From the NCBI GenBank assembly GCA_040954595.2, contig CM082592.2:10564731-10628730 (forward strand): a stretch of DNA of 64,000 nt. Direction: 5' to 3'. Below the pieces are notes generated by a model. The model was not told the origin of the DNA and searched no databases. It worked only from the letters and a program-made list of their open reading frames with translations. Positions 19,667-21,751 of the stretch are shown here, one piece after another. Position 1 is the stretch's first letter; each line of letters begins with the position of its first letter. The stretch is from Balanoglossus misakiensis (Eukaryota > Animalia > Hemichordata). The translations under genes were made by a program, and so were the position numbers.

Positions 19667-21751
19667 ATGCCAACCTGTGTGTGTGCTGTGTCCTGTTGTA
19701 ACAACAATACCAGAAAGCTACGACTGTGGAAGAAATTGACATGTAAGAAGCATGCAAGCAGCTATGGAAGTGGTGAATGCGTCTGTCCACCACCTTTCGC
19801 GTTGTTTCCCTTTCCCACAGAAAATAAAGATCCAGAGACCAGAAAAGTGTGGACTCAAATTGTTTGTCAGAACATACCGTCCCGGATAAACTGGACAGCA
19901 ACACGCTACGATAGAGTTTGTTCCAAGCATTTCCGAGATGGCATGCCGACGGCCGATAATCCCTATCCAGTGTTGCATCTCCGTGATCCAGATTCAAAAT
20001 CCGTGAGAAGGGGCAGATCCAGACAGCCAGGAATGATAGAATCAATGGAATTACCGGAGAAGATGCGGAAGTTGGATGAAAGTGATCTGGGAAGAGAGAG
20101 TCTGGATGAGGATGAGTTACTGGATGACAGTGAAGGAGACGGAAGTGAAGACAACAGCAGGGATAGTCAGGATGAAAGTATGAAAGATGAAAGTACGAAG
20201 GATGAAAGTACGAAGGATGAAAGTATGAAGGATGAAAGTTTGAAGGATGAAAGTTTGAAGGAAGAAAGTTCGAAGGATGATAGTATGGAGGATGAAAGTA
20301 GTCCACAGGCTGGAGGAAGCACATCAACCAAGAAAGAGGAAAGTGATGAAAAGGAGGAAAAAACTGCTGAGGATGAAGAAACTGAAATTCAGTCAGAAAA
20401 CGATCATGCCTCAGCTACTGATGAAAAACCATCCACATCTACTGCAAAAGCAGAGGTCGAGGTAACACAGGACGCTCCTTTAGATCTGAAATCAACCACC
20501 AATCCCACCACCTCGACTTCTGACCCGACCTCTGACCAAAAGACAGGGTCATCACAGGACAGTGAATCCAAGGTTCAGCCAGAAGAGCAGAAAGATCCAG
20601 TCCCTGCTCAGGAGAGTAATGAAGACAAGATGGCCATCAAGGACTCCGCTGATGCACCTATTGACCTCAGGTCAACAAGTCCCAGAGTTGATAAACCAAC
20701 CAAGACAGAAAAGACTGCAGCAGCGCCACAAGCAGTGGCACCACCAGCAGTAGCGCCAAAGGAGAAACCACCAGTTTCGACTGGTAGTCCTCAACCCATG
20801 AATTTGAAGTCTGGCAGTGATGTCCAGACGTCATCCGGGGCAGTGGAGAAAGTCAAGAGGCAACAACCAACACTGCACCAAGCAGGACATCCAAAATCAA
20901 CTCATCACACACACCATGCCAGTGGCAGTGAGTATTATATGCTCATGCTGATTTGCTAGAATCAGTCACATGATAGGAAAATAGAAAGACTATTTCCCTT
21001 GGGAGATAGTCATTAACTATTACCTTGTCATGTGACAAATGTGAGTTTATATCAGGAGGCAAGACATGAGCATGAGTTGTTTTAACTTCTAAAACACATT
21101 GCCTGGCATATTTTCAAACCATAGCACCATTTTATGTGATAGTACCATTTTGATCAATAACCATGTTTGAGGAAGGTTTGACAGAAGTTCACATCTTGTC
21201 TGGGTGTGAGCTGCAATGATTAATTCTCCCCCCCCCCTCCCTCCTCCTTCCACACAGGTGCCCCTTCATCCAGGAGCTCAACACCAGTTCATTCCGGCGG
21301 ATCTTTGCCAAGGAATCCCAGTTTCACCACACCAAGTATGTTGGGAATGATGCAAGATCATGGGCAGCCTCCACAACCCTCACAGAGCAAGTACAATGAA
21401 CTACTCTCTGTCATTGAAGACATGGGCAGGGATGTGAGACCAACTTATTCCGGCAGCAAGACTTCAATGGAAAGACTTAAAAGAGGTGAGCTTTCAGAAA
21501 ATTCTCTCATTCTTTTGCTATCACAATTTATTCAGTACAAGTCAGAAGAGTTATAAAGGAAATGGAGCATTCATCTTTTTGATTCCAAGGAAATGAACGT
21601 GGTATATTGATAAAGTTCCTGAGAGGATTTTAGGTGGATACTGTGGTTGAAATACACTGATTTTTTTATCTCTCTTTCCACAGGTATCACCTATGCCAGA
21701 GTTCTTCTACAACAGTGTAAGGTTGAGGTGAAACGTAGTGCAAGATACTGA
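19667..21751 (+). CDS. chimeric protein: THAP zinc finger, acidic/KDES-repeat linker with PxDL motifs, and CDK2AP1 (DOC-1) domain; exons 19667-20927, 21258-21485, 21684-21751 (~518 aa)
   Basis: THAP hallmarks CAVSCC...FPFP...W...RVCSKHF...PYPVL. The phase-1 donor at 20928 joins the acceptor at 21257 in frame to [55 protein letters not shown]. Confidence 0.85.
20168..20302 (+). repeat. coding 15-bp tandem repeat x9 ((K/Q/E)DES(M/T/L/S))
   Basis: aaggatgaaagtacg-like units, 135 bp in total. Confidence 0.95.

Follow-up and report, generated by a model that had tools for sequence, protein, structure and literature searches.

A THAP zinc finger predicted to be spliced to a duplicated CDK2AP1 domain in acorn worms: an apparently undescribed, probable variant of transposase capture

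Background

Genes in which a transposase-type DNA-binding domain is spliced to a regulatory domain of the host have been described as host-transposase fusions, among them KRABINER, KMARD1 and KTIGD1/3 (Cosby et al., bioRxiv 10.1101/2020.05.07.082677). Here we analyse a gene of this general kind in the acorn worm Balanoglossus misakiensis. It lies in a stretch of 64,000 nucleotides (assembly GCA_040954595.2, contig CM082592.2, positions 10,564,731 to 10,628,730, forward strand) that we call the window and whose coordinates we use throughout. The predicted protein begins with a THAP zinc finger and ends with a duplicated domain of CDK2AP1, a subunit of the chromatin-remodelling and deacetylase complex NuRD. 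Like the fusions described by Cosby et al., it would be a lineage-specific and likely repressive factor. It differs from the KRAB fusions of that report in that the host part is the CDK2AP hairpin of a chromatin-remodeller subunit and stands at the C-terminus, the transposon exon supplies the start codon, the catalytic DDE part is missing and the carrier is an invertebrate deuterostome. The joined transcript that characterizes such fusions is represented here by consensus splice sites and concordant RefSeq models, which are sequence predictions only.

Three other systems are close. C. elegans CTBP-1a has an N-terminal THAP domain fused to a corepressor (bioRxiv 10.1101/2020.06.09.143248), and the structure of that domain, 2JM3, is the second-best fold match to ours (Z 4.8). 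As described there, CTBP-1a contains CtBP itself, whereas the window protein has motifs of the CtBP-binding type together with a NuRD-subunit domain, and its THAP is of the expanded ISL2EU type. The ISL2EU transposases of the PHIS (PIF/Harbinger) superfamily (PMC4482050) have the same N-terminal expanded THAP with a Cys/His insert, 42-52 % identical in the closest examples among the matches listed. The fusion differs from them in having no HTH_Tnp_4 or DDE_Tnp_4 domain, no terminal repeats found around its THAP exon and a conservation pattern like that of orthologous genes. Finally, CDK2AP1 and CDK2AP2 (DOC-1 and DOC-1R; PF09806; 2KW6, 2M1L) have the C-terminal helix hairpin, Y63 and C105 in common with the fusion, which is extended at the N-terminus by about 400 residues that include a zinc finger and has five fixed substitutions in helix 2. 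At 467-518 residues with a folded THAP, against about 12 kDa, the fusion proteins are not canonical NuRD subunits of the CDK2AP1/2 type and we class them as CDK2AP-domain proteins.

Recruitment of NuRD to DNA normally depends on separate transcription factors. How it gains its site specificity has been called a central question (PMC9545347). In worms, genetic interactions link THAP proteins to NuRD (PMC13641710), and transposon-derived THAP factors are frequent in invertebrates according to a study that does not mention hemichordates (PMC10027918). Among the titles and abstract openings listed by a literature search that left most subscription journals outside, we found no description of a THAP-CDK2AP1 fusion.

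Results

Structure of the fusion gene

Three exons on the plus strand (19667-20927, 21258-21485 and 21684-21751) with GT-AG introns give a stop-free reading frame of 1557 nt encoding 518 amino acids plus the stop. The splice sites have GTGAG donors and CAG acceptors with pyrimidine-rich tracts. The gene is made up as follows.

18600..20100, no strand: CpG-rich stretch, likely the gene's own promoter and 5' end (CpG ratio; promoter role proposed)
19172..19647, plus strand: predicted intron in the 5' untranslated region, AG/GTGAGT donor at 19172, CAG acceptor ending at 19647 (sequence only)
19667..20927, plus strand: coding exon 1, expanded THAP and acidic linker; 1261 nt, 420 codons plus 1 nt, phase 1
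21258..21485, plus strand: coding exon 2, duplicated CDK2AP1 domain exon, hairpin from 21386; 228 nt
21684..21751, plus strand: coding exon 3, with the last part of CDK2AP helix 2 and the stop codon (splice model)
22197..22249, plus strand: two AATAAA (22197 and 22244), likely poly(A) signals of the gene (sequence match)

A preliminary description of this DNA had proposed the same three exons in frame. Its exon model stands except for the start of the THAP exon, which is probably set by an acceptor upstream of the ATG (AG at 19646-19647); a predicted non-coding first exon with its donor at 19172 precedes it. The observed/expected ratio of CpG is 0.80-1.30 in the 300-bp bins of 18600-20100 against 0.13-0.49 in those of 20100-22500, with 0.59 for the window. 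Judging from the sequence, a CpG-rich 5' end, a CpG-poor body, a non-coding first exon and AATAAA signals are as would be expected for a transcribed gene.

The lengths of both coding introns (20928-21257 and 21486-21683), 330 and 198 nt, are divisible by three. They hold nine and four in-frame stops, respectively, so retention of either would truncate the protein. If the THAP exon were skipped, translation from none of the three upstream ATGs that we tested (within 18900-19171) would reach the CDK2AP exons.

The same architecture in other acorn worms

A search with residues 1-115 of the window protein returned two proteins from 15 candidates and both have a CDK2AP domain. They are the RefSeq models XP_070571441.1 of Ptychodera flava (467 aa) and XP_077996331.1 of Glandiceps talaboti (489 aa), in which THAP and CDK2AP are arranged as in the window protein. 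Both records are annotated as 'uncharacterized', with only PF09806 precomputed. The window and P. flava proteins align continuously across the predicted exon junction. Since the same join was modelled in two other species, it is more than chance, and the fusion claimed in the preliminary description is supported. We consider the fused gene very probably real.

The three proteins are conserved very unevenly. Identity to the window protein in the THAP region is 100/115 (87 %) for P. flava and 88/115 (77 %) for G. talaboti, and in the CDK2AP domain 53/54 and 49/54 (91-98 %). The last 20 residues are identical in P. flava and show one difference in G. talaboti. The linker between the two domains retains only 86/224 (38 %) and 72/240 (30 %). 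As a test of purifying selection on the captured THAP, the comparison of 77-87 % with 30-38 % between orthologues is made at the protein level only. From these identities the window fusion appears closer to the Ptychodera than to the Glandiceps copy.

A partial protein of Saccoglossus kowalevskii, XP_077866166.1, was the third match of an exhaustive phmmer search with the THAP, of which we used the best 150 of 695 matches, leaving 148 relatives. It comes from a contig of 1029 bp and contains the THAP together with an acidic tract and two of the linker motifs described below, but ends before the CDK2AP part would begin. Its THAP groups with the three fusion THAPs (support of 89 in the Shimodaira-Hasegawa-like approximate likelihood-ratio test, SH-aLRT), and by sequence it looks orthologous to the fusion. 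The fusion would predate at least the Ptychodera-Glandiceps split and probably that of Saccoglossus, and likely goes back to the enteropneust ancestor. Saccoglossus and Ptychodera separated about 370 million years ago.

The architecture has so far been found in this one clade. None of the 148 other THAP relatives scanned, drawn from the best 150 of 695 matches, has a CDK2AP domain. A word-index search with the CDK2AP region, limited to proteins of 256-818 aa with longer ones not searched, brought back nothing beyond the two orthologues out of 33 candidates. Among shorter proteins the same search gave just seven canonical CDK2APs, a sign of its low sensitivity. The THAP-CDK2AP1 architecture is real, conserved and apparently undescribed.

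An expanded THAP of transposon type

19667..19984, plus strand: expanded THAP zinc finger, residues 1-106, with C6, C11, C85, H88 and a 73-residue spacer (profile, fold and alignment)
19742..19786, plus strand: C-x2-H-x8-C-x-C insert with C26, H29, C38 and C40 (alignment; metal binding proposed)

The C2CH signature, C6-x4-C11...C85-x2-H88, is present in the window protein, the P. flava and G. talaboti proteins and the entry P0010. The conserved core of THAP domains includes the residues P, W, F and P. Here these are P50, W62, F89 and P101, which are at least 90 % conserved in 85 sequences and were aligned to THAP11 and THAP2. A basic stretch with five K/R in residues 107-120 follows the signature. 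The Cys and His of the insert are invariant or at least 90 % conserved in the 85 aligned sequences and their pattern is found in 134 of the 148 relatives; such conservation suggests that the insert likely forms a second zinc site.

In canonical THAP domains the spacer between the two pairs of zinc ligands measures about 35-50 residues. With 73 residues, and a Pfam THAP score of 22.6 bits for a cut-off of 23.9, the window domain is not a canonical finger of the THAP1 type and was assigned to the expanded ISL2EU type; the long insert in the spacer accounts for the low score. A profile of 85 family members matches THAP11 at an expectation value (E) of 2.4e-8. The AlphaFold2 model of the domain has a predicted local distance difference test score (pLDDT) of 87.7, and in the VIA fold search 4 of 48,161 chains reached a Z of at least 2, all of them THAP domains (best Z 5.0, root-mean-square deviation 3.6, 78 aligned residues). 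On this predicted structure, the fold match appears weak in score but specific. Structure-atlas features point to THAP clusters at 0.89-0.91, while the full P. flava model was of low confidence and uninformative.

By our count by eye, 140 of the 148 relatives match Pfam THAP and 136 of them reach the cut-off. HTH_Tnp_4 or DDE_Tnp_4 is present in 36, and THAP, HTH (helix-turn-helix) and DDE together make up the ISL2EU architecture (PMC4482050). The preliminary description had noted that THAP domains are related to the P-element transposase. For this copy we reject a P-element origin, since no P-element transposase family occurs among the 148 relatives, which include transposases of the ISL2EU/Harbinger type. 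In a tree of 140 rows (11 of 151 having been excluded for incomplete coverage; 70 of the 137 inner branches lack resolution) the fusion THAPs fall in a nine-row clade with two transposases of the HTH_Tnp_4/DDE_Tnp_4 type (SH-aLRT 88). Their sister is a Saccoglossus host protein with THAP and C2H2 fingers (SH-aLRT 90), so the donor may already have been a domesticated host gene. From these relationships the THAP exon was likely captured from an ISL2EU/Harbinger-type transposon; its ultimate source would be of the ISL2EU type, possibly with a host gene as intermediate. The locus is not an intact ISL2EU transposon: it has a Pfam THAP only, no HTH or DDE, and no convincing pair of inverted repeats.

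Expanded THAPs are modelled with other domains elsewhere: with SETDB1-like Tudor domains in skate (XP_078288014.1), a sirtuin fragment in Mytilus (CAG2257678.1), BTB in Owenia (CAH1797432.1) and C2H2 fingers in Saccoglossus (XP_077863548.1 and one more record). These may be repeated captures or merges made by gene prediction.

CtBP-type motifs in the acidic linker

20169..20296, plus strand: 15-nt tandem repeat encoding acidic pentapeptides, expanded only in the window copy and absent from the aligned orthologues
20477..20494, plus strand: CtBP-type motif 1, PLDLKS, aligned with P. flava and G. talaboti motifs
20657..20674, plus strand: CtBP-type motif 2, PIDLRS, equal to the CtBP-binding motif of Pc2/CBX4
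20795..20812, plus strand: CtBP-type motif 3, PMNLKS, aligned with orthologue motifs

From its composition the linker is probably disordered. It diverges freely except for conserved islands, three aligned P-[ILM]-[DN]-L-x-S sites present in all three full-length proteins. The looser pattern P[ILMVF][DN]Lx occurs three times in each of the three linkers at aligned positions. As a control fairer than the shuffling discussed below, it is present only three times in the 26,217 residues of the 148 relatives, two of these being in the Saccoglossus protein. The sites resemble PxDLS, the ligand motif of CtBP, and CtBP2 has been reported with NuRD components in a proteomic study (PMC4063256). PIDLR(S) is the CtBP-binding motif of Pc2/CBX4 (PMC2808386), and PIDLRS is required for CtBP binding in Bootlegger of Drosophila simulans (PMC12992792). 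With three conserved motifs of this type, which the preliminary description had missed, CtBP becomes a candidate corepressor at least equal to NuRD.

A duplicated and retuned CDK2AP1 domain

17095..18177, plus strand: canonical CDK2AP1, the parent copy, 131 aa; exons 17095-17131, 17347-17457, 17811-17990 and 18110-18177 (GT-AG model)

The parent gene has its AATAAA at 18562 and ends 1490 bp before the ATG of the fusion gene. Its domain exon (180 nt, against 228 nt in the fusion) scores 41.3 bits with Pfam CDK2AP (PF09806, cut-off 26.2); exon 2 of the fusion scores 35.5 bits and the two orthologues 52.3 and 50.0. The P. flava fusion matches 2M1L at E 2e-18 and 2KW6 at E 7e-17. Two introns are common to parent and fusion, one interrupting LKR-G and the other, of phase 1, preceding the domain exon, a pattern which suggests that the duplicate arose at the DNA level and not by retroposition. 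A tandem genomic duplication of CDK2AP1, as originally proposed, is thereby supported and the conservation across acorn worms strengthens it. After this duplication, the THAP exon would have replaced the first coding exons at the phase-1 intron.

The domains of the two copies are identical at 37 of 54 residues. Over 55 codons the nonsynonymous and synonymous divergences are 0.22 and 1.40 by the NG86 method and 0.22 and 0.83 by LWL85, and we found no similarity between the introns of the two genes on comparison. These values and the dissimilar introns suggest that the duplication is old and its product constrained. A CDK2AP tree (10 rows, 54 columns) gives no date for it, the window holding the only canonical hemichordate copy included.

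A preprint with a crystal structure reports that the hairpin of human CDK2AP1 packs on CHD4-C2b with the surface that it uses for homodimerization, the dimer and CHD4-bound states being mutually exclusive (bioRxiv 10.64898/2026.06.03.728223). For the hairpin of the P. flava protein, residues 408-467, a homodimer is predicted with a score of 0.67 against 0.02 for the best of three controls; a like complex has already been solved (2KW6, 2M1L), so the predictor may have memorized it and the result shows likeness only. The runs agree in at least 95 % of contacts with a pLDDT of at least 76. The mark used was reached by 21 of 30 solved microbial homodimers and by none of 23 monomers. Among eukaryotic proteins it was reached by 17 of 29 homodimers (7 of 16 for animals, 1 of 7 for those with no older solved relative) and by none of 30 monomers.

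The hairpin core, Y63 and C105 are kept in the fusion copies, while the proposed CDK2-binding site T109-E110-R111 (PMC13324047) is replaced by V/A-K-R. The pattern of conservation and change indicates a hairpin that is under selection but retuned. By analogy with human CDK2AP1, and with 16 of 25 predicted interface positions invariant across three fusion and seven canonical domains, its docking on NuRD is plausible. A short segment ahead of the hairpin, at about 21300-21350, is conserved in the three fusion proteins and aligns weakly to the parent; we regard it as a candidate for an N-terminal CHD4-binding helix of the human CDK2AP1 type.

Neighbouring genes

Tail-to-tail with the fusion gene lies MTRFR/C12orf65 (22718-23107, minus strand; E 1.2e-18 to 7A5H). 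Further on, 24224-25810 (plus strand) is an acidic open frame of 528 codons with no Pfam match above cut-off, possibly a large MPHOSPH9-like exon. Within the region 24224-29318 (plus strand), the end of the open frame at 28905-29318 resembles the C-terminus of MPHOSPH9; Pfam gives nothing useful for it. In human, MPHOSPH9, MTRFR and CDK2AP1 lie next to one another, and by this likeness the present one would be the ancestral CDK2AP1 locus. On the other side, a Nudix-hydrolase-like gene at about 14780-16450 (minus strand), presumably NUDT6-like by its motifs, stands head-to-head with CDK2AP1 across a CpG-rich region (16500-17400). Two rolling-stone-like genes (PF21534) facing each other at 10933-11565 (plus strand) and 12163-12708 (minus strand) are another local duplication. 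The window also holds ordinary genes for a metallophosphoesterase (839-1693), GLE1 (5196-5636), a hyaluronidase (GH56, 7154-8809) and clathrin-repeat exons (36722-42464).

Discussion

We tentatively favour the view that the fusion encodes a lineage-specific targeted repressor. The THAP domain would bind a specific DNA site, and the PxDLS-like motifs of the disordered acidic linker would bind CtBP, with several copies raising avidity. The CDK2AP hairpin would form a homodimer or alternatively replace CDK2AP1 within NuRD, in the slot provided by the C-terminal hairpin of CHD3/4. Deacetylase and remodelling activity would in this way be placed on THAP target sites. A bolder version, which we consider less likely than not, holds that a core NuRD subunit became its own sequence-specific transcription factor: the hairpin would occupy the CHD3/4 slot and switch between homodimer and CHD, the three motifs would bridge NuRD and CtBP, and a DNA-addressed variant of NuRD would have existed since the enteropneust ancestor.

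Several observations weigh against a repressor of this design. The splice junction in the window is predicted and the orthologues are computational RefSeq models. For the DNA-binding part, the Pfam score is below the cut-off (E 1.9e-4), the best fold match has a Z of only 5.0, and Foldseek gave no match at E of 0.001 or less, its top five all being THAP. For the capture from a transposon, the closest sister is a host protein and no convincing terminal inverted repeats flank the THAP exon in 18500-21300. The linker motif count was reached by 0 of 20,000 shuffles, a figure that overstates the significance because the pattern was chosen after seeing the sequences, and motifs 1 (PLDLKS) and 3 (PMNLKS) are variant PxDLS forms and only putative CtBP ligands. 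With regard to NuRD, full CHD4 binding of human CDK2AP1 also needs an N-terminal segment (bioRxiv 10.64898/2026.06.03.728223). At the predicted interface 16 of 25 positions are invariant across the three fusion and seven canonical domains, only modestly above the 13 of 29 elsewhere. Five changes (H97Y, V102L, E104Q, L106K and E110K) are found in all three fusions at positions invariant in the seven canonical CDK2APs. Three of them, V102L, L106K and E110K, sit on the predicted dimer/CHD4 interface and may have changed or abolished binding to CHD.

The last point bears on what we consider the most serious competitor, albeit an unlikely one, in which the protein is a THAP repressor acting through CtBP only and the hairpin is a mere dimerization module with no entry into NuRD. 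Many THAP proteins carry a coiled coil, whose place the hairpin would take. The three conserved linker motifs, the predicted homodimer, the fixed changes on the surface common to dimer and CHD4 binding and the loss of the parent's N-terminal exons all fit such a protein. Against it, the hairpin core, Y63 and C105 are retained, and since in human a single surface of the hairpin serves both partners, a fusion that keeps the dimer surface has likely kept the CHD surface too. Doubt could also fall on the finger. Its insert of 25 residues, which adds four Cys/His, gives the THAP another shape and the structural match to DNA-bound THAPs is weak, so that the finger could be a protein-binding module with no sequence-specific DNA binding and the fusion a modulator or competitor of NuRD/CDK2AP1. 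We judge this very unlikely, given that 134 of 148 relatives have the insert too, including transposases expected to bind element ends, and that all C2CH ligands are kept and followed by a basic stretch.

It is also conceivable that the THAP still targets ISL2EU-type elements by their ends, silencing or blocking these elements, so that the gene serves transposon defence and not the regulation of host genes. KRAB-transposase fusions repress via cognate terminal repeats (bioRxiv 10.1101/2020.05.07.082677), and the relatives of the window THAP include the N-termini of transposases (36 of 148), with two transposases in the next clade out. A THAP that is 77-87 % conserved between families does not look fast-evolving as an arms race would suggest, and defence seems quite unlikely to us. 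Least of all do we believe in a prediction artefact, a single-exon THAP gene ahead of a separate or dying CDK2AP1 duplicate. The frame of exon 1 does remain open for ten codons past the donor, up to a stop at 20957-20959. Such an artefact is nevertheless highly improbable when the same join was modelled independently in two other genomes with continuous alignment through the junction, the CDK2AP part is 91-98 % conserved and none of the three upstream ATGs leads into the CDK2AP exons when the THAP exon is skipped.

Conclusions

The acorn-worm gene is a probable transposase-capture variant with an apparently undescribed architecture. If the targeted-repressor reading is true, this natural joining of a core subunit to a DNA-binding domain, retained between acorn-worm families, would be a built-in answer to how NuRD is targeted. 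With the fusion one can test directly if cargo can be carried in the CDK2AP1 slot and if entry into NuRD depends on the dimer/CHD switch, and a programmable tether for NuRD could be modelled on it. Transposase capture, known from KRAB fusions in vertebrates, would also be extended to a subunit of a chromatin remodeller, in an invertebrate deuterostome that serves developmental studies.

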